DNA of 64,000 nucleotides from contig OZ242214.1 in NCBI GenBank assembly GCA_965206595.1, positions 1,728,001 to 1,792,000 of the forward strand. Reading direction: 5' to 3'. The translations under genes were made by a program, and so were the position numbers. Below are positions 46,403 to 62,679 of this stretch, piece by piece. The DNA comes from Candidatus Latescibacterota bacterium (GTDB taxonomy: Bacteria; Latescibacterota; UBA2968; UBA8231). Each line of letters begins with the position of its first letter. The first letter of the stretch is position 1. The notes beneath the pieces were generated by a model. It was not told the origin of the DNA. It was given only the letters and a program-made list of their open reading frames with translations, and did not search any database.

Positions 46403-48370
46403 GTGAGACTGGATCGCCGAACGCAGCTGTCGATCGCGTACGCGATACTGACCGTTCTGCTCCTTCTCGTCATTCAGAGTTATCTCCAAGTCCAGGTTCA
46501 TACGCTTCCATACAGCGACTTCCGCGCCATGGTCGCTGAAGGAGCAGTCCGGGAAGTCTCCATCGGATCCGATTCGATCACTGGCAAGTATTTCTCAGAC
46601 GGTGCTGAGAAGAGTTTCGTGGTGACCCGGGTGGATGACCCGGAATTGGTCAGCCTCCTCGCCGAGCACGATATCGATTTTTCCGGTAAGATCGAGAGCA
46701 CTTGGTTCACGACGCTGCTGTCCTGGGTTCTTCCGGCCCTGATTTTCGTCGGTATCTGGATGCTGATGGCCCGCCGCATGGGGGGTGGATCCGGGGGCTT
46801 GATGTCGATCGGCAAGAGCAAGGCCAAAGTGTACATGGAGAAGGGGACGGGAATAACCTTCGACGACGTTGCCGGTATCGACGAGGCCAAGGAAGAGCTG
46901 GAAGAAGTAGTCGAGTTTCTCAAGACCCCGGAGCGGTTTCAGGCCCTCGGAGGCCGCATACCGCGGGGGGTGCTGCTGGTCGGTCCCCCAGGCACGGGAA
47001 AAACCCTGCTGGCAAAGGCCGTGGCCGGGCAGGCCGAAGTCCCCTTCTTCTCGATCAGCGGTTCGGACTTCGTCGAGATGTTCGTGGGAGTCGGGGCGGC
47101 GCGTGTTCGCGATCTTTTCGAGCAGGCGAAGAAGCACGCTCCGGCGATCGTCTTCATCGATGAGCTCGATGCGCTAGGCAAAGCCAGAGGGGTCGGCTCA
47201 TTCGGTGGCCACGACGAGCGCGAACAGACCCTGAATCAGCTTCTGACCGAACTCGACGGGTTCGGCACCAACGTTGGAATTATCCTGATGGCCGCGACCA
47301 ACAGGCCGGAAATTCTTGACCCGGCGTTGCTGCGACCGGGGCGCTTCGACCGTACCGTTACCGTCGACCGGCCTGATGTAAAGGGACGAACCGCCATCCT
47401 CGAGATTCACGCCCGCGATACCAAACTCGCCGACGAGGTCGAGCTGAAAAAGGTGGCGATCCAGACTCCTGGGTTCGCCGGTGCCGATCTCGCAAACGTC
47501 GTTAACGAAGCGGCGCTGCTCGCCGCGCGGCGTGACAAGCAAACCATCACCATGGATGAGCTCAGCGAGGCTGTGGAGCGAGCCGTCGCAGGCCTCGAGC
47601 GCAAGAGCCGTGTCCTGAACGAGAAGGAACGCCGCATCGTCGCCTATCACGAGGCGGGTCACGCGATCGTCGGAGAAGTGCTCGATGATGCGAATCCCGT
47701 TCAGAAAATTTCGATAATCCCCAGGGGAGTCGGTGCTCTCGGCTACACTATGAACATGCCGACGGAGGACCGTTACCTGATGACGAGGGAAGAGCTGCTC
47801 GACAACACCTGTGCCCTGCTGGGGGGACGCGCCGCCGAAGAGATCGTTTTCGGGGAAATTTCGACCGGCGCTGCCAGCGATCTGCAGAAAGCGACGCAGA
47901 TTGCCGAGAGCATGGTAAAGGAATACGGCATGAGCGAAAGGCTCGGCCTTGTCGCCTATCGCGAAAGCCGTCAACAGCAGTTCCTGGGAATCCCCAACGG
48001 GGAAAAACTCTACAGCGAGGACACCGCCAGGCGCATCGACGGCGAGGTAGCGCGCATCATCGACGAGTCGTACTCCAGGGCGAAGGAGGTTCTCGTCGAA
48101 CGGCGCGAGGTGTTGGAAAAGGTCGTAGGGGTGCTGTTCGAAAAAGAGATAATGGAGGGGGAAGAGTTGCGGCATCTGCTCAGCGGGGATGAATCCGAAC
48201 CGCTGTCCGAGAGCGCAGACGGGAACCAGAGCGGCTCGGAAACCGGCCCCGACTCTTCCGCTTCCGGTAATGGAAAAACCGCCGACTCCGACGTCAGCGT
48301 TGATTCCGTTCCAACCGACTCCCTCGCACCCACCCGCCCCACTGCCGACGACGGGAGCCGCGAAGAGTAA
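46403..48370 (+). CDS. ftsH: ATP-dependent zinc metalloprotease FtsH
   Basis: 2 [42 protein letters not shown]. Confidence 0.97.
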
Positions 48371-51798: not shown

Positions 51799-52563
51799 TC
51801 AAACCAGGACGGGGAGATTTGTGAATTCGAGGCAGGACTCGATTTCTCCTTCGTCCATCATTCCGATGACAAAGGCGTGCACTGCGGGGAGGCCCATGAC
51901 GAACTCGACTGCCCCGCCGGGATCGGACGCCAGTTCGCTTCCCCCGCCCATGACCTTCATCCCGTAGACGCCCTGCCCCCTGGCGTCCATAGCTTCGATC
52001 ACCGGAACGACCCGATCGGGGGATGCGCACATAGCGTGCCCGGCCGGGTTTATGCGCACAAGATTGACGTCTACCCAGTCGCACTCCGACGCGGCTTGCA
52101 GCGCACCGAAGTCGTGGCAGGAACAGCCCAGGGCCCGCACCCGACCTCTGGATTTGAACTCGCTGAGGACGTCCATCGGGCCACGCATCTCCTCCGGCCA
52201 ATCAGCCGAGGTCAGGCAATGCAGCAGCAGGATGTCGATATAATCGGTGCCTAGCTCCGCCAGGAAACGCTCGACGTCGGAGCGAACCTCCGATGCGGTC
52301 CGCGAGACGGTCTTCGTGGTAACTGTCACCGATTCCCTGCTCACCTGGCGGAGGGCGTCGGCCACGTGCGGGTGGGTTCCGTACATGTCGGCCGTGTCCC
52401 AGAAAGTGATTCCGCGTTCGTGGGCGTAGCGCAGCAGATAGGAGAGCCGCTCGACACCGAGGTCCCCCTGGTTCGAACGGTGATGCCACCCTTGGGTTCC
52501 GGTTCCGAAACAGAGGCGAGAGGTTCTGATCCCACTAAGGCCGATGTCGACAGTTTCCATCAT
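51799..52563 (-). CDS. aldo/keto reductase
   Basis: WDTADMYG, TTKT, LGTDYIDILLLH, GRVRALGCSCH; ATGA overlap with upstream peptidase. Confidence 0.9.
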   Translation of the reverse strand: MMETVDIGLSGIRTSRLCFGTGTQGWHHRSNQGDLGVERLSYLLRYAHERGITFWDTADMYGTHPHVADALRQVSRESVTVTTKTVSRTASEVRSDVERFLAELGTDYIDILLLHCLTSADWPEEMRGPMDVLSEFKSRGRVRALGCSCHDFGALQAASECDWVDVNLVRINPAGHAMCASPDRVVPVIEAMDARGQGVYGMKVMGGGSELASDPGGAVEFVMGLPAVHAFVIGMMDEGEIESCLEFTNLPVLV

Positions 52564-53744
52564 GGCAATGCTCCCCCAGGACGAGGCGATTGGGCTTCCT
52601 CCAAGCGAGGCCGTTGGCCCTGGTAGCGGGCTTCCAACCGGCACTCGATCTTGCGTTGCGCCTCTTCGCCGATGCCGGCCACCCCTTCCCGACAGACCGC
52701 GGCGCGGGAAAGGAGGTTGACGAGAGCGAGGGCGTCGTCGATGTCGATTGCTTCGGGTCGCAACCGCTTCTTTCCCCAATTGTGGTAATGATCGAGCGGC
52801 AGGGCGACCGCGGCCACTTGGAAACCGGCCTGCGCCAGGACCGTTGCCTCGCACGCGCCGCCATCCATCAGCTTCCGCTGGTAGGGAAATCTCGAATCGG
52901 TGCCGGTCATCTCACCTTCCGCGATGGCGACCAGCCCGGCGCTGAGCCCGGGATCGAATACCGATATGCGGTCTCCGACGCGAATGACCGGACCAGCTCC
53001 CAGCTCCGCCCCGGTACGGCAGTTCGAGCACTCGATGTTTATGTAGGTCGAATCCTGGGGCAGCAAACCGCTACTTACGGCCGCCATCATGCCGCCGAAT
53101 CCAGTCTCTTCCGCCCGGGTCAGCAGTAGTCCGGCACAGTGCTTGAAGGGACTGCGCCGCAGTTGGTCCAAAACGGCGATCGCCACTGCCACCCCGGCGA
53201 GGTCGTCGCAGACCCGGCCCCGAAGCCGGCGTCCCCGCTGCCGCAGCGCAGGTAGCCGCCACATTGCGAACGAGTCCGGGGTCAGTAGCCTGGCATCCGC
53301 CTTGGAAATGCGGACCGAAAACAGCGGCTGTCCTCCCACAGGTTCGGCATACGATTCGATAGCACCCCGAACCGGGGCCTGGTCTGCGGTTCCCGCCGGA
53401 TCGTAGATGTCGACCTCCCCCTTCTTCGCCAGATCGAGGTTCACGTTCCCGGCGAGCTCGAACAGGTGATCACGGAGCGAGAGAGGTTGGGAGTAGAGGA
53501 GTCCGGGATGGTCCATGTGGGCGGTCATTACCACCCGGGGGACTCGTCCCGAATTCCCCTCCCGATCGCAAAGGAGCAGGAGATTGCCCACCGCATCGGT
53601 CTGCATCGCTAGATCCAACTCCTCTGCATGGCGTGAGACCGCCTCTATCACGAACTGCTCGCGAAACGGCGCCGTCGGGAGCGACATCAATCGGTGGGCG
53701 AGATGCAGAAACCGCTTCTCCGCTTTGCCGTCGGTGGTATCCAT
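52560..53744 (-). CDS. M42/M20-clan metallopeptidase-like hydrolase
   Basis: AHMDHPG, CDDLAG, AEETG, GPVIRVGD, GGACEA, HYHN. Confidence 0.82.
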   Translation of the reverse strand: MDTTDGKAEKRFLHLAHRLMSLPTAPFREQFVIEAVSRHAEELDLAMQTDAVGNLLLLCDREGNSGRVPRVVMTAHMDHPGLLYSQPLSLRDHLFELAGNVNLDLAKKGEVDIYDPAGTADQAPVRGAIESYAEPVGGQPLFSVRISKADARLLTPDSFAMWRLPALRQRGRRLRGRVCDDLAGVAVAIAVLDQLRRSPFKHCAGLLLTRAEETGFGGMMAAVSSGLLPQDSTYINIECSNCRTGAELGAGPVIRVGDRISVFDPGLSAGLVAIAEGEMTGTDSRFPYQRKLMDGGACEATVLAQAGFQVAAVALPLDHYHNWGKKRLRPEAIDIDDALALVNLLSRAAVCREGVAGIGEEAQRKIECRLEARYQGQRPRLEEAQSPRPGGALP

Positions 53745-54038
53745 TCAGAAAATGCCCTGCTCGAAATTGGATTCTTGCAATGCCCGATGCCTGCGCGCGC
53801 AAGTTCGTCCGAGTACGAGATCAGAACCGCCGAATTCACGCGGCATTGCTCAAGGGACCGGTCTCAGCAAGGTCGATCAGGCGTGTACTCCGTGTCAACG
53901 CGGTAACGGACCCGGGATTTTGGATTGCCCAATCATTTCCGAAGGAATACTTTGGCTCCTGTTTCAAACCTTCCAATCGAATTTGGGCCTGTCTCCCACC
54001 TCCGCACCGGCTTTTCCGCGGGCCCGAGGATTCCCGCG

Positions 54039-57000
54039 ATGAGGTTGCCGCCCGCCCGCCGTACCGCCCTCATTGCCGCGGCATTGGCCGCTTCCGCGGC
54101 AGGCTCCTCGCAGGACGTCCGGACGACTCTGGCCCCCGACCTCACCGCCCGGGTCGAGGCGGCAGTGCACACCTTCGCCTCCGGCTCCCGTGTCACAGGC
54201 TACCCAGGAAACGCGCGTGCCGCCTCCTTCATCGAGGAGAGCCTGCGCCGCAGCGGCTGTGTCGACATTCATCGCGAACAGTACGACGTCGTGGTACCGA
54301 TCGAGGCAGGCAGCCGGCTGGTGCTTTCGGACTCTGATGAAGTTATCCCCATTTTTGGCTTGTGGCCCAACCATGTGCGCACCACCAGCACCCCGCCTGA
54401 TGGGATCGAGCTCCCCCTGGTGTACGGAGACCGGGGGGAGTACGCCGACTTCGAGGGACTTCCGCTGGAGGGCAGAGCCGTGCTCATGGAATTCAACACC
54501 TGGGATCACTGGACGCGGGCAGCCAGGTTCGGCGCCCGCGCTTTCATCTTCATCGAGCCGGAGGATACCGGCTACCTGCAGACCCTCGACAAATACACCA
54601 GCGTCCCCTTGAACATCCCCCGGTTCTGGATCGACCGCGAGAACGGCCTGAAGCTCCGCCGCCGAGTGGCCGGCGGCGACCCGGTTTCCGTCGTTATCCA
54701 CAGCCGCATGGACTGGCGTGAGCAGCCGGCGTGGAACATATGGGGAAAGGTGGTCGGGTCGGACCCGGAGCTGAGAGACCAGACCATAGTCGTCGACGCC
54801 TACTACGACGGGATTTCGGTCGTTCCCGCCCTCGCACCCTCCGCGGAGACCTCGTGCAGCATCGTCGCCCTCCTCGAGCTTGCCCGGCACCTGCAAGCGC
54901 ACCCGCCTGCCCGTACAGTGATTTTGTCTGCGACAGGGGCCCATTTCCAGGGGCAGCGCGGTATGATCGAGTTCCTCGACCGACATGCCAGAAAGGACGA
55001 GGACTACGCCAAGTGGATGGAGGAGCCTCTCAATGTCGATCTCTTCCTAAGTCTCGACCTGAGCTCGCGGACCGATCAGGTCGCCGTCTGGAACAACTCC
55101 AACCGGTTTGAGCTCAAGCGGCTGTTCGTTCCTTTCTCGCGCCGATTCACCAGGTACTCCAAGGAGGTTGCAGCCGCCCAGGGGCGTGAGCCAACCGCTG
55201 CTTTCGCCAATGGCATCAGCCCGATCAGGGGGATCGACTGGTCCACGCTGGCACCCGGCGGAGTGCCGACGAGCGGAACGGTGGCGATGGAAGCCGGGCA
55301 GCTCGCCCTCAGTTTCGTCACCACACACGACGCCAGGCTATCCCTCAACAGTCCGCTCGACCGGGCGGAGGGTGTCCGCATCGAACAGCTGGCTGCGCAG
55401 ATCCAGTTTCTGAACGGAATCCTGTCTCTTGCTTTAGACGATCCGGAGTTGCTGTCGAATCTCGAGGAGTTCGACCCTGTTCTCCGCGACAATCTCCGCA
55501 CTCACCAGATCAAGGTTCGGTCCTTTCCGAGGCGTGCACAGATTCCGAACCGCCCGGTGCCCCAGGCCGTGGTTAGCGAAGGGTTCGACCTGGTCTTCAA
55601 GGGGGTCCAACAGGAACGCTATTACCTGACGAACCAGGACGGCGACGTGACGTTGCAAGGCCTCGTGGTCGGGAATACCACCGGTATTTCCGCCTTCGTT
55701 CTGGATCCGGAGACGGGTGAGGTCCAGTTTGCCCCCGACCTGAGCAAAAGGGCGCAGAGGTTTGCGGGAGAACCGGGATTCAGCGGAAAGATCTCGTGGG
55801 TGACCCGGTGGACGGCGGACGAGAAGACCCTCGTCCTGTTTCCCTGTGTCCCCGGTGAGCTGTTCGGCCTTGGCGGTAGCTCCGACAGCTTCAAAATCCT
55901 CGACCGCAGCGGCCGCGCGCCAAGGCAGTTCGGGTATTCGCGCAGCAGCTTCGCGTCTCTGGTCTACGCCGACCGCGACCTTCCCGAACAGACCGACGGT
56001 CTGAAAATCATGGCGGGAACGTCCGGGAGTGCCCGCTTTCTTCTTAACAGCCCGGGAGGGAACGACGAGAGCACGGCGCGGGGGATCGGCTACCACTTCA
56101 AACGCGACACCTTGACCCCGACAGGCTTCTACGTGGTTCGCGACATGATGCGCCTCAACGATGCGCGCCTGCACACGATGCGGAAGCACGCCATCGAGAA
56201 CCACAGCGTTTCCCGTTTTCAGGAGAACGGGCGCCGCTTGCTGCAGCGGGCGGCGACGGCCCTTTCCGAGCACCGCTGGGACGACTACACAAGCTACATA
56301 CGCGAAGCTGGCGGGATGATCTTCCGTGCTTATCCATCGGTGATCGGTACCCTGAACGACGTGATCTTGGGGATGGCTTTTTTCCTCGCACTGGTGATTC
56401 CGGCCGCCTTCTTCGCCGAGCGGCTGCTCCTGGCCTCACCCGATATCCGCATGCAACTGACTGGCTTCGTAGCGGTCCTGATAGTGATCTGGGCGATCCT
56501 CTCCCAGGTCCATCCCGCTTTCGCGATCGCCCATCCGCTGGTCGTCCTGCTCGCCTTCGCGATCATGGCAATGGCGGTTTTCGTACTCCTGATGGTGGTG
56601 ACTCGCTTCAACCGCTACCTGCGCGAATACCGCGCCGAGCAGGCGAGGGTGCACCAGACCGACATAAGCCGGTTCAGCGCCGCCTACACCGCCTTCATGC
56701 TCGGGATTTCCAACATGCGCAGGCGCAAGCTGCGGACGAGCCTGACCCTGGGCACGATCACCTTGCTGACCTTCACGGTCCTGTCGTTCTCCTCCTTCAA
56801 GCCGGATGTCCAGTTCTTCGCCTTTTCTCACCCGCACGAGGGGGCATACGAAGGCGCCCTGATTCGCCATCACAATTGGGACTGGATCGGAAGGTGGAAG
56901 ATCGAGGCGGCGAGGTCCTACTTCGGCGAACGCGCCGTCCTTTCCCCACGCAACTGGTACATCGCCGATCCCTCCGAGGCGAAGAAGTACATCCGGGTCA

Positions 57001-58469
57001 GCCACGGAGAACGCTCCTCACTGGCCACCGCGATGCTCGGCCTCTCACCGCAGGAACGCGATGTTACGAGCGTTCACGCCGCCCTGGTCGCCGGAGACTA
57101 TTTCGATTCCCCGGAAGAGAAGAGCTGCCTGATCTCTGTCGAAATGGCGAAGAACCTCGGTTTCGGTGGAATGCGGACGCCGGCGCCCGGGGACAGTGTG
57201 CGCGTCCTCGGGACAATGCTGCGAGTGCGAGGACTGTTCGACGCCGATGCCCTTTACGCCCTTCACGACCTCGACGACGAACCGCTGACTCCGGTCGATT
57301 TCCATCGCTCCTCCGCGGAGCTCATGGGTTCCCGGCCCCAGGACGTCAAGGACACCTCGGAGAGGGAAGAAGAGACCAGGGCCTTCGTGCACCTGCACCC
57401 GGACAACGTCGTCATTCTGCCTTTCGAGGCGTTGCGCGGTGCAGGAGGGGAGCTGCGGTCCGTGGCCATGCGTTTCGAATCCGGCGCCGACATCCGGGGG
57501 ATGATCGAAGGGTTCATCACCCAGACCCCGATGACGCTGTTTGCGGGGACGCGCGACCCGGAAAGCGACCGCATCACCGTTGCCTCGTTTACCTCCTTGG
57601 GGCTGACCTCGGTCGAGGGGTTCCAGGCCCTCGTGATTCCGATGTTGATCGCCGGACTGATCGTCCTCAACGCCATGATGGGGGTGGTGTACGAGCGTTT
57701 TCGCGAGATCGACATCTACTCTGCGGTCGGGCTGGCGCCCATGCACATAGCCCTGCTGTTCATTGCCGAGGCCTGTGTGTACGCCGTCCTCGGGGTTACG
57801 TTGGGTTACCTGCTTGGGCAGACCCTCGGAAAGGCGATTGTCACCTTCGACCTCTCCGCAGGGGTCAATTTGAACTACTCCTCGTACGCGGCGATGGCCT
57901 CTGCGGCGGTGGTCATGGCGATCGTGCTCGCCTCTACGGTCTATCCGGCACGGGTCGCGTCGCGAGCGGCGGTTCCGGACCTGGTGCGACGATGGAAGCC
58001 CCCCCGGCCCATGGGAGACCGCTGGGAGTTCGAGTTCCCGTTCATGGTCAGCTCCGGGGAGGTTGTGGGAATTTGCGGTTTCCTGGCGAACTTTTTCGAC
58101 GCCTATAAGGAAGAGTCGATCGGAGACTTCTACGCCGAAAAGGTGACTCTCGTCAGTGAGGAGCCGGCACCCGGGGTCCGGCAGTACTCTCTGCAGATGC
58201 TCACTTGGCTCGCCCCGTTCGACATGGGGGTCAGCCAGTACCTGCAGCTAGATTTTCTGCCAGCCAACGACGGTAGCGGTATCTATTCGGTTGAAGTATT
58301 CATTCAGCGACTGAGCGGCCAGGATACCTACTGGCAGCGGGTCAACCAGCGCTTCATGAACACCTTGCGCAAGCAGTTTCTCCTCTGGCATACCCTCAAG
58401 GCGGACGCCCGGGACTATCACCGGGAGAAAGCCAAGGCCATGCTCGGTTCACCCGTACCGGCGACATGA
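54039..58469 (+). CDS. large membrane protein: signal + PA/M28-peptidase-like domain + TM bundle + MacB/FtsX-like permease + C-terminal domain
   Basis: SRVTGYPGN, VVDAYYD...APSAE...ALLELAR; GISNMRRRKLRTSLTL; VYERFREIDIYSAVGLAP..IALLFIAEA; STVYPARVAS. Confidence 0.85.
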   Translation: MRLPPARRTALIAAALAASAAGSSQDVRTTLAPDLTARVEAAVHTFASGSRVTGYPGNARAASFIEESLRRSGCVDIHREQYDVVVPIEAGSRLVLSDSDEVIPIFGLWPNHVRTTSTPPDGIELPLVYGDRGEYADFEGLPLEGRAVLMEFNTWDHWTRAARFGARAFIFIEPEDTGYLQTLDKYTSVPLNIPRFWIDRENGLKLRRRVAGGDPVSVVIHSRMDWREQPAWNIWGKVVGSDPELRDQTIVVDAYYDGISVVPALAPSAETSCSIVALLELARHLQAHPPARTVILSATGAHFQGQRGMIEFLDRHARKDEDYAKWMEEPLNVDLFLSLDLSSRTDQVAVWNNSNRFELKRLFVPFSRRFTRYSKEVAAAQGREPTAAFANGISPIRGIDWSTLAPGGVPTSGTVAMEAGQLALSFVTTHDARLSLNSPLDRAEGVRIEQLAAQIQFLNGILSLALDDPELLSNLEEFDPVLRDNLRTHQIKVRSFPRRAQIPNRPVPQAVVSEGFDLVFKGVQQERYYLTNQDGDVTLQGLVVGNTTGISAFVLDPETGEVQFAPDLSKRAQRFAGEPGFSGKISWVTRWTADEKTLVLFPCVPGELFGLGGSSDSFKILDRSGRAPRQFGYSRSSFASLVYADRDLPEQTDGLKIMAGTSGSARFLLNSPGGNDESTARGIGYHFKRDTLTPTGFYVVRDMMRLNDARLHTMRKHAIENHSVSRFQENGRRLLQRAATALSEHRWDDYTSYIREAGGMIFRAYPSVIGTLNDVILGMAFFLALVIPAAFFAERLLLASPDIRMQLTGFVAVLIVIWAILSQVHPAFAIAHPLVVLLAFAIMAMAVFVLLMVVTRFNRYLREYRAEQARVHQTDISRFSAAYTAFMLGISNMRRRKLRTSLTLGTITLLTFTVLSFSSFKPDVQFFAFSHPHEGAYEGALIRHHNWDWIGRWKIEAARSYFGERAVLSPRNWYIADPSEAKKYIRVSHGERSSLATAMLGLSPQERDVTSVHAALVAGDYFDSPEEKSCLISVEMAKNLGFGGMRTPAPGDSVRVLGTMLRVRGLFDADALYALHDLDDEPLTPVDFHRSSAELMGSRPQDVKDTSEREEETRAFVHLHPDNVVILPFEALRGAGGELRSVAMRFESGADIRGMIEGFITQTPMTLFAGTRDPESDRITVASFTSLGLTSVEGFQALVIPMLIAGLIVLNAMMGVVYERFREIDIYSAVGLAPMHIALLFIAEACVYAVLGVTLGYLLGQTLGKAIVTFDLSAGVNLNYSSYAAMASAAVVMAIVLASTVYPARVASRAAVPDLVRRWKPPRPMGDRWEFEFPFMVSSGEVVGICGFLANFFDAYKEESIGDFYAEKVTLVSEEPAPGVRQYSLQMLTWLAPFDMGVSQYLQLDFLPANDGSGIYSVEVFIQRLSGQDTYWQRVNQRFMNTLRKQFLLWHTLKADARDYHREKAKAMLGSPVPAT

Positions 58470-61114
58470 AATTCAGGCGCAAGCTCAAGCAGAATCAGTG
58501 GCAGGAGGTAGAGGAGTACCGGGCGCTTCTCGAGCCACCCGACAAGTTCGAGGACGGCTTTACGATCCGGACGATCGTCGGTGTCCTCTTCATTTCCCTG
58601 ATAATGACGCCGGGGGAGATGTACCTCGGTTTGGTTACCGGTGGAGGAATAGGGGATGCGGCCCAGTGGGTCACCGTCATCCTCTTCCTCGAAGTCGCCA
58701 AGCGCTCCTTCACGTCGCTGAGGAGGCAGGAGATCTTCCTGCTCGTGTACGTGGCCAGCGCGCTGGTGGCGCGCGAGGAAGGGGCCTTTCTCGACCTGCT
58801 GTGGCGCCAGTATTTCGTGCGCTCCGCGGAGGCGGAACAGTTTGGCATCTCCAAGCTGCTGCCGACGTGGTGGGCGCCGCCGCCCGACTCGGTCGCCCTC
58901 GCCGAACGCACCTTCCTGCACCCGGACTGGCTGTGGCCGATCGGCCTGCTCGTCATCGGCACCATCGTCGGCCGCATTTCCTGGTTCACTTCAGGATACC
59001 TGCTGTTCCGGTTGATGTCTGACCGCGAGCAGCTGCCGTTTCCGACGGCGCCGATGTCCGCCCTGTCCGCCATGGCGCTCGCCGAGGAGAGCGGTGACGA
59101 GGCCGAGACTTGGAAGTGGCCGGTTTTCAGCATCGGCGGCGTCATCGGCGCGATCTTCGGCTCCGTGTACGTGGGGATCCCCGAGGTAACCGCGGCGATG
59201 GGTTCCAGGATCCAGGTGATCCCGATCCCGTTCTGGGACCTTACGCCATTTTTCGGGAGTCTCCTGCCGGCCACGCCGCTCGGCATCACCCTACACCTAG
59301 GCCCGATCTTCGCCGGCTTGCTGATGCCTTTCTGGGCGGTTATCGGGTCGTTCTCCGGGGTCGTGGTGCACACCGCAGTCAGCCCCTTTCTCTACTGGAA
59401 AGGAATGCTTCCGAGCTGGGCCCCGGGGATGACGACAATCAACACCCAGATCGCCACCAGCATCGATTTCTGGCAGGCCTTCTCTGTCGGCATCACCCTC
59501 GCGGTCACCGTCATCAGCTTCTACCAGCTTCTGGCCAGCGGCCGCCGCGAGCGCGCCGAAGCGCGGGAACGGGTTCTCGGCCAGCGGAAGGAGTACCCGA
59601 GAACCTGTCGCCACGACGGTTGCAACCGGCCCTCCGAGGTGCGCGGCTACTGTCTGCCCCACCTCGGCCGCGGCGATTTCAACCTCTGGCTCTGTCTGGT
59701 GCTGTTCGGGCTTGCGGCTTTCTACCCGATCGTGCTCGCAAAAACCCTGTTCCCGACCCTGGTCACCACCGGGCTGCTTCTCACCTTTTTCGGCATCGCC
59801 TTCGTGTACGCCCCGATCATGTCGTTCGTCAGCGCCCGCCTCGACGGCATGATCGGGCGCGAGGTCTCCATTCCCTATGTCAACGAGGCCGTCATCTTCC
59901 TCACCGGGTACCGCGGCGTCGACGTCTGGTTCGTGCCGTTTCCGACGCGGAACTACGGCGGCCACGCCGAGGGGTTCCGGGTGGTCGAGCTGACCGGGAT
60001 GCGCTTCACCAGCCTGCTCAAGGCGGAGCTGTTCATGCTGCCCATCATCCTCGTGGTGAGCATGATGTACTGGAGCATGCTCTGGAGGCTCGGCCCGATC
60101 CCGTCGGAACGATATCCCTATGCACAGCTGATGTGGCCCCTCAAGGCGTACCAACAGGCCCTCTTTTTTTCCAGCACGATGTACAGCCGAAGTTGGCGAG
60201 CGGGGGAGACCCTCGCCGACGGCACGGCCATCTCCCGAGGCCAGATCGTGTGGAGCCCGCACAACCTGCAGGACGGTTACTGGTGGTACTGGCGGGTGCG
60301 CGCCTCGCATGACGTCGAGATACCGGACCCCGACAAGCGCTACTACGGCGAGTGGTCGAAGACCGGTTATTTCTACACCGATTTCAGCGGCCGCAAGCCT
60401 CCCGATGTTGCCGCAGCGCCGCACCTGCGGGCTTTTTCCCCGCCAAAGGAAAGGGCATCCGAAGGGCAACCATCCGCCCCGGAACTGGTCTGGCCGCCCC
60501 CAGGTGAAATCATCGACACCCCGAATCCGAACTTCGACGCCCGCTTGAGCACGGCCCCCCGGGATTCCGTCGAGTTCTACTTCGAGGTCGATCGCCTGCC
60601 GACCTTCGACGGCGAGTTTCTGCAGCGGTCCTCCGACATTCCCCTGCTGTTCGAGGCGCACTGGCGCGATCTCAGCTTCACCGGGGACCGGCGGGACAAC
60701 GACGGCGACGGGCTGGTCGACGAAGAGCTGAAGAACGGACTTGACGACGACGGTGACGGGATTACGGACGAGTCCGACCTGCAGCATCCGCTCGACGGAC
60801 GCAAGTGGCCGATCTCGCTTTTCGCCGCGGGCTTCGGTCTCGTCGCCTACTTCACTATGGCCTTCCTCGGCTTGCCGATATTCCTGATATGGGGGTACGT
60901 CCAGAGCGTCAACGGCATTCCCCACGCCCTGCTGCCGCAGATCGCCGGGGCCCTGTTGGCGCGCTTCTACTTCTGGAAGCGGTACGGCAAGCAGGAGTGG
61001 CGGCGCTACGCCATGGTCCTGAGCGTCGGCTTCGGGGTAGGGATGGCGTTGATCGGCATGTTCTGTGCGGCCCTGGCGATGATCAGCAAGGCAGTCACGG
61101 CCCTGCCGTACTAG
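58466..61114 (+). CDS. OPT-like (oligopeptide transporter superfamily) membrane protein with soluble insertions
   Basis: DGFTIRTIVG, YLGLVTG, LRRQE, EQLPFPTAP, many TMs, WRLGPIPS..YPY; ATGA coupling to upstream gene. Confidence 0.78.
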   Translation: MKFRRKLKQNQWQEVEEYRALLEPPDKFEDGFTIRTIVGVLFISLIMTPGEMYLGLVTGGGIGDAAQWVTVILFLEVAKRSFTSLRRQEIFLLVYVASALVAREEGAFLDLLWRQYFVRSAEAEQFGISKLLPTWWAPPPDSVALAERTFLHPDWLWPIGLLVIGTIVGRISWFTSGYLLFRLMSDREQLPFPTAPMSALSAMALAEESGDEAETWKWPVFSIGGVIGAIFGSVYVGIPEVTAAMGSRIQVIPIPFWDLTPFFGSLLPATPLGITLHLGPIFAGLLMPFWAVIGSFSGVVVHTAVSPFLYWKGMLPSWAPGMTTINTQIATSIDFWQAFSVGITLAVTVISFYQLLASGRRERAEARERVLGQRKEYPRTCRHDGCNRPSEVRGYCLPHLGRGDFNLWLCLVLFGLAAFYPIVLAKTLFPTLVTTGLLLTFFGIAFVYAPIMSFVSARLDGMIGREVSIPYVNEAVIFLTGYRGVDVWFVPFPTRNYGGHAEGFRVVELTGMRFTSLLKAELFMLPIILVVSMMYWSMLWRLGPIPSERYPYAQLMWPLKAYQQALFFSSTMYSRSWRAGETLADGTAISRGQIVWSPHNLQDGYWWYWRVRASHDVEIPDPDKRYYGEWSKTGYFYTDFSGRKPPDVAAAPHLRAFSPPKERASEGQPSAPELVWPPPGEIIDTPNPNFDARLSTAPRDSVEFYFEVDRLPTFDGEFLQRSSDIPLLFEAHWRDLSFTGDRRDNDGDGLVDEELKNGLDDDGDGITDESDLQHPLDGRKWPISLFAAGFGLVAYFTMAFLGLPIFLIWGYVQSVNGIPHALLPQIAGALLARFYFWKRYGKQEWRRYAMVLSVGFGVGMALIGMFCAALAMISKAVTALPY

Positions 61115-61169
61115 CGCGGTCTCTGTGTGGACCAAGGGAACTCGCGCTTCTATATTCGAACCGAGGGCC

Positions 61170-61538
61170 ATGAACCTTTTCCGCCGCCTCTTTGAGATCG
61201 GCCGCTCGCGGCTTCAGGATCGCCAGCCCGGGCAGGCACCCTGGTTCGAAGCGGATGGTTTCGGCGGGGACAAGCCCGATTCCAAGGGAAAGCGCACGGG
61301 CTCCGGTCCCAATGTCGACCCGGCTCTGGCCGAGTATTACGCAAACCTCGAATTGCCGTTTGGATCCGATCTGGAGACCGTGCGTGCCGCATGGCGCCGG
61401 ATGATGAAGCAATACCACCCTGACAGACATGCCCGGGACGAGGAGAAGCGCCGCATGGCGGGCGAGCTGACGGCGCGACTCACAAAGGCTTACAGGGAGC
61501 TTGAAACCGCGCTGTCAAACCGGGAGAAGGAGCATTGA
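61170..61538 (+). CDS. small J-domain (DnaJ-like) protein
   Basis: YYANLEL...VRAAWRRMMKQYHPD...LTKAY. Confidence 0.9.
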   Translation: MNLFRRLFEIGRSRLQDRQPGQAPWFEADGFGGDKPDSKGKRTGSGPNVDPALAEYYANLELPFGSDLETVRAAWRRMMKQYHPDRHARDEEKRRMAGELTARLTKAYRELETALSNREKEH

Positions 61539-61951
61539 TGTCGGAGCGCTTTGACATGGTCAAGGAATACGTCCTCGAGCTGGGTTTCGAAATCGACGAG
61601 GAAATCCCCGAGGAGGAGATCGTCATCATCAACGACCACGAGCGCGGCATTCACAACCTCGTCATCGACTGCGAAGAGTCGGTGCTCGTGCTCGAACAGT
61701 TGATCATGAAAATCGATACCGAAGCGGGGCAGGAGGTGTACCGACGAATTCTGCAGATGAACCGCGAGCTCGTGTTCGGGGCCTTCGTCCTCAACGATGC
61801 CGCCGATACCCTCTTGTACCGGAACACCCTCGCCCTCGGCACTCTCGATCTCAACGAGCTCGAAACCACCATCAACGCACTCAGTCTCGGCCTTGCCGAG
61901 AACGGGGAAGAGCTGCTGAGGTTCGCGGAACAGCTAGCGCCCGAAGCCTAG
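61538..61951 (+). CDS. YbjN/CesT-like chaperone-fold protein
   Basis: Acidic ~137 aa, YRRILQMNRELVFGAFVL, LDLNEL; TGATG coupling. Confidence 0.8.
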   Translation: MSERFDMVKEYVLELGFEIDEEIPEEEIVIINDHERGIHNLVIDCEESVLVLEQLIMKIDTEAGQEVYRRILQMNRELVFGAFVLNDAADTLLYRNTLALGTLDLNELETTINALSLGLAENGEELLRFAEQLAPEA

Positions 61952-61971: not shown

Positions 61972-62679
61972 ATGGGGGGTATTTTCCAACGTCTTTTCAA
62001 AACCGGGCAGGCCGAGGCACATGCCCTTGTCGACAAGCTCGAGGATCCCATCAAGATCAGCGAGCAGGCGATCAGGGATCTCAAGAAGGATCTAACCGAC
62101 AGCCTCAAGAGTCTGGCCGAGGTCAAGGCCTTGGCCATTCGCATGGACAAGGATGCCGAAGACGCCAAACGGCTCGCAGGCGACTACGAGCGCAAGGCGA
62201 TGCTGCTGCTGCAGAAGGCGCAGTCCGGGGATATGGAAATGGTGGATGCCGAGCGCTTGGCCGGGGAAGCGCTGACCCGCAAGGAGGAGGGAACGACCAG
62301 AGCTCTTGAGTCGACCCGGCAGGCTCACGCCCAGCACGCGATGGTCGACAAGATCCAGGCCAACGTTAACGACATGAAGTCGAAGCTCGCGTCGTACGAA
62401 AACGACCTGACCATGCTCAAGGCCCGCGCGAAGACCGCGGACGCGACCCGGAAGATCAACCAGAGACTGGCCAACGTCGATTCTCGAGGCACAGTCGCCC
62501 TGCTGGAGCGTATGAAGGAAAAAGTGGACGAGCAGGAGTCGCTGGCGGAAGCGTATGGGGAGATGGCCGATTCCTCGCGCTCCGTCGACGACGAAATCGA
62601 CAAGGCCCTGACACAGGGCTCCTCCTCCAAGGCGGACGACTCGTTGGCCGATCTCAAGGCCAAAATGGGAATTTCGTAG
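61972..62679 (+). CDS. pspA: PspA/IM30 (ESCRT-III superfamily) protein
   Basis: MGGIFQRLF, DKLEDP..EQAIRDL, LKARAKTA, LERMKEKV, LADLKAKM. Confidence 0.92.
   Translation: MGGIFQRLFKTGQAEAHALVDKLEDPIKISEQAIRDLKKDLTDSLKSLAEVKALAIRMDKDAEDAKRLAGDYERKAMLLLQKAQSGDMEMVDAERLAGEALTRKEEGTTRALESTRQAHAQHAMVDKIQANVNDMKSKLASYENDLTMLKARAKTADATRKINQRLANVDSRGTVALLERMKEKVDEQESLAEAYGEMADSSRSVDDEIDKALTQGSSSKADDSLADLKAKMGIS

Follow-up and report, generated by a model that had tools for sequence, protein, structure and literature searches.

A giant permease-like protein and its overlapping partner

The stretch of DNA analysed here, a window of 64 kb, comprises bases 1728001-1792000 of a 7.05-Mb single-contig genome, and the names that sources attach to its nearest relatives among proteins indicate Candidatus Latescibacterota. 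Its subject is a pair of overlapping genes on the forward strand (Table 1). One encodes a giant protein (hereafter the giant), in which a peptidase-like ectodomain of the M28 type precedes an FtsX-type permease core as found in ATP-binding cassette (ABC) machines, and the other encodes a divergent permease with the OPT/Yellow-Stripe fold (the OPT-like protein). The overall design had been read from the letters alone in an earlier note, namely a protein of ~1480 amino acids (aa) with signal peptide, PA/M28-like domain, extra bundle of three transmembrane (TM) helices and MacB/FtsX permease, coupled through ATGA to a gene of 882 codons. Pfam, profile and structure searches confirmed this architecture, and the overlap, in which the TGA stop of the giant shares its bases with the ATG of the OPT-like gene, is present in the sequence (gcgacATGAaattc).

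The ATG at position 54039 is the likelier start of the giant, since a signal-peptide-like sequence follows it (MRLPPARRTALIAAALAASAAGS) and the resulting product of 1476 aa is in line with homologues of 1430-1510 aa. The GC content at third codon positions (GC3) is 0.79 for the giant and 0.86 for the OPT-like gene, values typical of real genes in this genome. Short contigs from RNA libraries (two runs of one study, X19 and X20) are 90-99% like parts of the giant, OPT-like, J-domain and YbjN genes, and one of them (58170-58629) crosses the giant/OPT-like junction; coming from relatives, they are a hint at most and cannot establish transcription, strand or a single transcript.

Table 1. Features of the locus (window positions) and of related loci in the same genome (genome positions, so marked)
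Feature	Position	Strand	Basis or remark
M42-family aminopeptidase-like gene	52560..53744	-	394 aa; divergent from the giant/OPT-like pair
Giant M28-FtsX gene	open reading frame (ORF) 53925-58469	+	1514 aa counted from the first TTG
Sec-type signal-peptide-like N-terminus	54039..54107	+	inferred from the translation, no predictor used
PA + M28-like ectodomain, degenerate active site	54129..55124	+	profile matches 2ek8, 6hc6; motif table
Middle ectodomain, aa 401-790, fold without assignment	55125..56294	+	most divergent part among paralogues, 26-34% identity
Extra three-helix TM bundle, aa ~805-895	56337..56609	+	hydropathy, model helices; periplasm to cytoplasm
MacB-type periplasmic core domain, aa ~963-1225, between TM1 and TM2	56811..57599	+	structure comparison
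FtsX C-terminal module, TM2-TM4, with ERFREI coupling-helix motif	57606..57968	+	PF02687; YtrF/MacB alignment
Cytoplasmic C-terminal alpha+beta domain, aa ~1366-1508, ~145 aa, behind TM4	58020..58448	+	predicted local distance difference test (pLDDT) ~90
Divergent OPT/Yellow-Stripe-fold permease gene	58466..61114	+	882 aa
Cys/His cluster C381, H383, C386, C396, H399	59606..59662	+	K/R-rich loop ahead of near-invariant GRGD
Acidic beta-rich insert, aa ~575-780, ~200 aa, between late TM helices	60188..60805	+	DSSP, pLDDT
J-domain protein	61125-61538	+	Pfam; 10-base gap after the OPT-like gene
YbjN/CesT-Tir-like protein	61535-61951	+	CesT_Tir_1 144.9 bits; gap -4
PspA/IM30	61972-62679	+	PspA_IM30 150.8 bits; 20-base gap
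Giant paralogue	genome 1068479-1073263		OPT-like partner, p338, PqqD
Giant paralogue fused to DUF6785+DUF6784	genome 1304597-1311244 (L016:5597-12244)		2215 aa, single ORF
Giant paralogue	genome 3761071-3766443		UPF0182 protein 39 bases downstream
Giant paralogue without adjacent partner	genome 6510371-6515380 (region L019:246-10380; 6505246-6515380)		long branch, 1.86
Small FtsX (234 aa) + ABC ATPase (262 aa), two-gene unit	genome 4577083-4578607 (G000; L103:9083-10607)	-	single, unlinked to giants

The peptidase-like head occupies the N-terminal third of the giant. Over this third, a profile of 34 family members matched the PA+M28 aminopeptidases 2ek8 (E 9e-12) and YwaD (6hc6, E 5.9e-10), and the M28 family PF04389 was matched by homologues and by three of the genome's own paralogues; the window's giant alone gave no M28 Pfam match at E<=0.1. 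With motif positions taken from the alignment to YwaD and 2ek8, outside of which the two later metal ligands lie, the canonical M28 residues were found replaced, YYD standing for HxD, E for the bridging D and HF for EE. The replacements are themselves conserved: the HxD histidine is a tyrosine in 28 of 29 homologues, the bridging aspartate a glutamate in 29/29, and the Glu-Glu pair a histidine followed by Phe, Tyr or His in 29/29 homologues and 5/5 own copies, which argues that the site is under selection for something besides di-zinc hydrolysis. To judge from these residues, the head would be a catalytically degenerate, peptidase-shaped domain, for which the capture or binding role put forward in the earlier note is plausible, and the strict Y-D, E and H at the old metal site may serve other chemistry. 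Catalytically inactive M28-fold ectodomains are carried by nicalin, nicastrin and the transferrin receptor, and nicalin (7tm3) was matched by the family profile at E 0.058. As in those proteins, an aminopeptidase fold would be kept on a membrane complex for binding or gatekeeping; the giant differs in being bacterial, in the fusion of its head to an ABC permease and in the strict conservation of Y-D/E/H, and would exemplify the natural conversion of a peptidase fold into a receptor.

Behind the head, the middle ectodomain had no match in PDB or Pfam, and the ESM Atlas returned its own cluster only; PDB likewise gave no match when searched directly with the ectodomain sequence (aa 39-779). The extra bundle shows hydropathy peaks at aa 813-831, 841-859 and 873-891, ahead of the canonical TM1, with helices also in the model, and is 45-66% identical among the genome's own paralogues. 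Its odd helix number fits the topology, since a periplasmic head must return to the cytoplasmic start of the FtsX core. The domain between TM1 and TM2 has the MacB periplasmic fold, as indicated by structural matches (VIA) to 3ftj at Z 14.4 (root-mean-square deviation (rmsd) 4.5, 182 aligned), YknZ (5f9q) at Z 13.2 and LolE (5udf) at Z 12.6, together with Foldseek template-modelling scores of 0.5-0.6 against isolated MacB domains. When the model of the C-terminal half was searched with Foldseek, the matches were MacB 5gko (E 2.2e-7) and, over E 2e-7 to 1e-5, MacB, LolCDE, YbbAP and HrtBA. PF12704 (MacB_PCD) is matched by homologues and not by the giant itself.

The sole Pfam match of the giant is FtsX (PF02687, aa 1237-1347, 43.1 bits vs a cut-off of 25.5), and the C-terminal part of the family profile matched YtrF, MacB, LolC and LolF. 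In type VII ABC permeases, an ERxREI motif between TM2 and TM3 forms the cytoplasmic coupling helix; in the giant, VYERFREIDIY aligns with TERTQEIG of YtrF and MacB, and E, R and I are invariant in the alignment (A2). The model of aa 780-1514 has a mean pLDDT of 72.8 and is most confident in the periplasmic and C-terminal domains. For the cytoplasmic tail, no Pfam family was found at E<=10 in six homologues and no match in the ESM Atlas. Its structural neighbours are helix-grip proteins including the Aha1 C-domain, with KA1 and BamC-like rows interspersed (VIA: Bet v 1-like 1vjh, Z 7.8, rmsd 3.2, 114 aligned; 8z3j, Z 7.8; StART-like 6cay, Z 7.2), and the modelled tail possibly has a helix-grip fold (START/Bet v 1/Aha1-like). 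This assignment is not adopted here, as Z values of 7-7.8 lie inside the common range of the tool and unrelated rows stand alongside. NCBIfam gave sub-threshold matches only for the giant, the OPT-like protein and the M42-like protein.

The OPT-like protein has 939 representative relatives at E<=0.001. Domain searches with hidden Markov models, which name the giant FtsX, leave the OPT-like protein below Pfam, and 5/14 of its more distant homologues pass the OPT family PF03169 (28.9-55.1 bits vs a cut-off of 25.8), in agreement with the OPT-like label that the earlier note had given it. The fold is clearer in the structural model (pLDDT 84, predicted template-modelling score 0.82), for which Foldseek returned the barley transporter HvYS1 as 7wst_A (E 1.5e-8, template-modelling score 0.53, 570 columns) and 7wsr_A (E 2.2e-8, score 0.55), the next match following only at E 0.018. 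The likeness to the OPT/YSL family (TC 2.A.67) thus lies in the membrane fold of HvYS1, with scores of 0.53-0.55 over ~565 columns. The differences are a sequence identity of ~14% to HvYS1, failure of the Pfam model, an acidic insert, a Cys/His cluster and constant encoding together with an ABC-type giant; a search of PDB sequences with the family profile gave a chance match only (E 0.56).

Two features set the OPT-like protein apart. Its Cys/His cluster (C-x-H-x2-C-x9-C-x2-H) is clade-specific, being present in 12/44 rows of alignment A1, all from the close clade, and may form a small zinc-binding knuckle that faces the cytoplasm. The acidic insert, with 40 D+E vs 23 K+R, is probably periplasmic in the model. 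Many homologues carry PDZ domains at its position according to Pfam, relatives of ~1070 aa having one or two. The terminal, acidic D/G-rich stretch of the insert is modelled at pLDDT <50, and the NCBIfam acidic double-disulfide repeat matches the insert end below threshold (21 bits vs a cut-off of 41).

Pairing across related genomes and among paralogues

Scanning one genome per species confirmed 594 relatives of the giant; the locus counts given below rest on the best 80 loci. An OPT-superfamily partner is adjacent to or fused with the giant in 80/80 of them, across at least two phyla. The OPT-like type lies directly downstream at 50 loci, within 147 bp at 49 of these and with the same 4-base overlap at 12; DUF6785/DUF6784 proteins are encoded upstream at 34 loci and downstream at 5, and both partners are present at 25. 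By hhalign (probability 97.7, E 2.4e-12, 572 columns), DUF6785 and DUF6784 (PF20581, PF20580) are homologues of the OPT-like family; they constitute the second usual partner of the giant, upstream or fused, as a subfamily separate from the OPT-like protein. The upstream copy has been lost at the window's locus, in its 96%-identical relative L023 and at L028 and L029; most of the clade retain it. Single fused polypeptides of ~2100 aa occur at 17 of the 80 loci, and the fused forms make up one tree group (18 rows, support 89).

The neighbourhood survey refutes the notion that homologues of the two genes go unlinked elsewhere, and the pairing proposed in the earlier note is real: the giant and OPT-like genes are a conserved functional pair. 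That they are unrelated neighbours, their overlap being incidental operon packing, has next to nothing to commend it. Such chance adjacency is rejected, as it would have to account for 80/80 loci paired or fused, 17 of them in one polypeptide and in at least two phyla, for a pairing repeated at paralogous loci of the same genome, and for a decayed copy in which remnants of a giant and of an OPT-like gene remain side by side.

The genome holds five full giants, including the one in the window with its OPT-like partner (Table 1), and also a lone 665-aa OPT-like gene. At the decayed copy (5082461-5085039; L021:6461-9039), two ORFs match aa 70-293 and 365-605 of the giant and are followed by the C-terminal half of an OPT-like gene, an arrangement suggestive of a deletion that spanned the junction of an earlier giant/OPT-like pair. 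Sequence identity among the paralogues is highest in the membrane segments (45-68%) and lowest in the periplasmic parts (25-37%), a pattern expected from a common membrane partner combined with diverse periplasmic ligands. The giant without an adjacent partner is preceded, on the same strand, by genes for a protein with a type IX secretion C-terminal sorting domain and a DUF4159 protein and by two ORFs without a Pfam family. Just past the PqqD gene of another paralogue lies a 760-aa ORF (L017:14802-17084) with a GC3 of 0.48 vs 0.8-0.9 for its neighbours and no Pfam family, which may be foreign DNA or no gene.

One paralogue adjoins a gene for a UPF0182 protein (PF03699, 944 aa; 3761071-3769317, L018:5071-13317). 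This adjacency was seen in four genomes (G000, G078, G087 and G094); the listed giants of G072, G079 and G111 lack a UPF0182 neighbour, and no UPF0182 was detected in G043, G055, G061 and G110. UPF0182 as a general partner of the giants is rejected, the adjacency pattern indicating lineage-specific recruitment, and the UPF0182-linked giant is the tree sister of the PqqD-linked paralogue (support 99). In the accessible part of a preprint (10.1101/2025.11.14.688347), UPF0182 is linked to FtsH regulation and membrane-protein quality control. An FtsH gene lies inside the window, at 46403-48370.

A candidate motor elsewhere in the genome

The hybrid complex of the earlier note includes no ABC motor; a machine of that kind was not supported, and the system is probably not ATPase-free, as a small FtsX protein and an ATPase are encoded in the giant's operons in Armatimonadota and in single-copy Latescibacterota. 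A small FtsX with its ATPase stands in cis at 10/80 loci, all belonging to one Armatimonadota clade (Shimodaira-Hasegawa-like approximate likelihood ratio test 100). The cis ATPases best match the ORF 4577083-4577871 of the present genome (347-375 bits vs 262-274 for the next best), and the cis small FtsX proteins best match its ORF 4577903-4578607 (126-170 bits vs 38-54). An ATPase of the LolD/MacB type, as looked for in the wake of that note, is accordingly found in cis at those ten loci, is missing from the window's own locus and is present elsewhere in this genome, in the two-gene unit of Table 1, which stands alone between glycosyltransferase and anthranilate synthase genes. An ABC ATPase ~7 kb from the giant at L044 and L045 was rejected as a component, its best match being a different ATPase of the genome.

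As to the distribution of the two permeases, the small FtsX was found in 101 of 121 genomes of the phylum, always in one copy, and the giant in 107/121, in one to ten copies; 100 genomes have both and 13 neither, and the eight genomes with only one of the two have a completeness of 57-89%. The small FtsX and ATPase genes are adjacent in 12/12 sampled relatives. In Latescibacterota genomes with a single giant, the small FtsX lies 3.6-4.4 kb downstream of it on the same strand in 4/4 cases, and two of these (L119, L120) display the full order giant, OPT-like, p338, PqqD-like, small FtsX, ATPase, in which DUF6785/84 may precede the giant. The same order recurs at the Armatimonadota loci L095 and L100. 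The p338-type member is a protein of 300-340 aa for which no Pfam family was found in four homologues. In the present genome this set is scattered, the sole PqqD gene and its 338-aa neighbour following the second paralogue pair at 1.07 Mb and the motor lying at 4.577 Mb.

Between TM1 and TM2, the small FtsX is left with a mere ~50 residues; almost devoid of a periplasmic domain of its own, it looks like one half of a heterodimer. Its ATPase has normal Walker and signature motifs, and the ERFREI coupling-helix motif is present in both the giant and the small FtsX. The unit at 4577083-4578607 is the candidate motor common to all giants.

Transport direction, rival machines and the flanking genes

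The pair may be understood as one substrate-specific module of a multi-component type VII (MacB/Lol/FtsEX-like) ABC machine joined to OPT-fold permeases, a reading in which we place about even confidence. In such a machine, the giant and the small FtsX would form a pair of the LolE/LolC kind, with two copies of the ATPase docked on their coupling helices; a single motor would serve several giant and OPT-fold modules in trans, much as an energy-coupling factor (ECF) energising module serves its S components. ATP-driven motion of the periplasmic domain, together with the dead-peptidase head, would capture a periplasmic ligand and load or gate the OPT-fold permease. In the most speculative part of the scheme, the ligand would be a peptide or other oligomer carried inward and broken down in the cytoplasm by enzymes like the neighbouring M42 protein. 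Uptake of peptides or other oligomers is the best guess, to which the OPT fold, the peptide-binding PqqD-type protein, the intact M42 enzyme next door and the receptor-like expansion of paralogues incline us. The wider proposal, that a single-copy unit of stub FtsX and ATPase, perhaps with the PqqD-like pair, acts in trans for up to ten modules and that the scaffold has also been recruited to UPF0182, is more tentative and on the unlikely side.

Comparison with known systems places the giant close to, and apart from, the type VII ABC group (MacAB-TolC, LolCDE, FtsEX-EnvC, YbbAP-TesA; PMC12646458, as far as its accessible part goes). Shared features are the four-helix FtsX core, the Porter/Sabre-type domain between TM1 and TM2, the ERxREI coupling helix, a MacB/LolD-type ATPase in the complete operons and, likely, a heterodimer of two unlike permeases, as in LolC/LolE. 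With YbbAP-TesA, the giant would further share a periplasmic partner domain of hydrolase fold, here covalently attached and without the canonical catalytic residues. Against these stand a PA/M28-like ectodomain of ~750 aa and three TM helices added before the core, a cytoplasmic tail behind it, a second permease that is no more than a stub of 234 aa, OPT-fold permeases as obligate neighbours or fusion partners, and, in this genome, a motor that is unlinked and outnumbered five to one. Group II ECF transporters and TonB-ExbBD likewise let one energising module serve several scattered substrate-specific membrane modules. The logic of sharing is alike by analogy only, as the families are unrelated and sharing in the present case is deduced from copy numbers.

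Several results weigh against a motor-driven import module. As the earlier note had remarked, no ABC ATPase or binding protein adjoins the pair: none of the genome's 76 ABC_tran matches falls inside the 64-kb window (1728001-1792000), and the 11 neighbouring ORFs scanned with Pfam include no solute-binding protein. No ABC ATPase stands next to any of the five giants of this genome, and at 70/80 related loci no motor-type ATPase lies within 10 kb, so that the sharing of one motor in trans is drawn entirely from gene counts and co-occurrence. The 13 genomes lacking both permeases, on which much of the co-occurrence depends, all belong to one family (f10, 0/13 for both genes), and this double absence may be a single evolutionary event, the genomes not being independent. 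Complex prediction for the giant (aa 780-1514) with the small FtsX passed weakly, scoring 0.36 against 0.00 for the best of three controls; the mark was reached by 116/157 solved complexes and 2/215 mismatched pairs, and scores above it and up to 0.60 by only 18/157 solved complexes and yet by both passing mismatches. Contacts agreed between runs to at least 82%, with partner pLDDT of at least 64, and the pass may reflect likeness only, LolC-LolE-type complexes having already been solved. The TM helices of the giant are modelled at pLDDT 45-65, and the OPT-like protein itself matches no Pfam family at E<=0.1, PF03169 included. On the functional side, UPF0182 is no OPT relative and is tied to FtsH control rather than uptake, the M42 gene is the divergent upstream neighbour at only 17/80 loci, all in one clade, and the PspA dyad downstream of the pair fits an envelope-maintenance role equally well. 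The type VII ABC systems characterised so far work on the envelope or in export, and the accessible part of PMC12646458 names no importer among them.

The absence of a motor-type ATPase from 70/80 loci and from the whole window, and the ratio of five giants to one motor pair, also speak for an ATPase-independent hybrid, in which the Latescibacterota giant would serve a proton-driven OPT-fold carrier passively, as receptor or scaffold, its FtsX core being a structural relic and the lone motor having some other purpose; the giant's own conserved cytoplasmic tail might even replace a nucleotide-binding domain. Such a hybrid is difficult to reconcile with a single-copy small FtsX that co-occurs with giants in 100 genomes and is missing together with them in 13, with its place in the giant's operon in 4/4 single-giant genomes and in Armatimonadota, with its look of a heterodimer half almost without a periplasmic domain, and with the coupling-helix motif and TM segments being the most conserved parts of the giant. 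We regard it as distinctly unlikely.

Direction and purpose leave room for a further alternative, that of an outward-acting or envelope-maintenance machine with the same architecture, whose ABC part would do mechanical work on the periplasmic side. It would extract, present or expel a molecule that is embedded in the membrane or periplasmic, such as a lipid-linked compound, a lipopeptide or a misfolded membrane protein, the OPT-fold proteins serving as conduits or flippases. LolCDE, MacAB, FtsEX and YbbAP-TesA all act in this manner, as described in the accessible part of PMC12646458; the pair is packed ahead of a CesT/Tir-PspA membrane-stress dyad at 18/41 comparable loci; and a sister paralogue precedes UPF0182 in four genomes, a family for which the preprint cited above proposes a link to FtsH and to quality control of membrane proteins. 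The tail of the giant, moreover, has middling structural matches (Z 7-7.8) to helix-grip domains that bind lipids or ligands. These matches do not rise above the noise level of the tool, and the PspA synteny is limited to a single clade. The OPT/YSL members characterised so far are known as importers, and one to ten copies per genome with divergent periplasmic parts resemble an expansion of nutrient receptors. An outward role is in our judgement unlikely, although it remains a serious competitor to the uptake module.

Should the union of a type VII ABC machine with OPT-fold permeases hold, it would bear on how transporters are conceived. ABC and OPT proteins are regarded as two distinct ways of moving substrates, the former powered by ATP and the latter coupled to ions, and to our knowledge no OPT has been described as the subunit of an ABC system, nor did literature searches turn one up. 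Each of the two is known; their union here is undescribed. In keeping with the earlier note, which knew of no functional characterisation, a literature search at the level of titles and abstracts, with supplements outside its reach, found no paper on the giant/OPT-like pairing, and none that mentions DUF6785. A conserved and often covalent union of this kind, if true, would be a new way to build a transporter or an envelope machine, and, since 107/121 sampled Latescibacterota have it, with as many as ten copies, and Armatimonadota have it too, it probably plays a central part in feeding or envelope upkeep in these abundant, uncultured bacteria. It would also provide a functional context for three families that lack one, namely DUF6785, DUF6784 and the prokaryotic OPT-like proteins, with UPF0182 tied in through one paralogue.

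The genes flanking the pair are of two kinds. Upstream, the M42-like protein matches Pfam Peptidase_M42 at 55.5 bits and aligns with PhTET1 (2cf4, E 6.9e-7); its AHMDH, DD, EE and H motifs are intact, and it is cytoplasmic-looking, without a signal peptide. The earlier note had made a divergent peptidase part of the machine, degrading what is captured, and this did not stand, given that cytoplasmic look and the limited recurrence of the gene; the enzyme may be a downstream consumer at most and not a component. Downstream, the J-domain, YbjN and PspA genes probably share a transcription unit with the pair, to judge from their spacing, and the CesT/Tir-like gene stands directly ahead of the PspA/IM30 gene. 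The CesT/Tir-PspA dyad has already been described (PMC11237479), its attachment to a transporter module and the added J-domain gene being absent from the accessible part of that source. Where the OPT-like gene lies downstream of the giant with enough room behind it (41 loci), PspA and YbjN follow at 18, with the J-domain gene at 16 of these, and all of them except L047 fall within the window's 27-row tree group.

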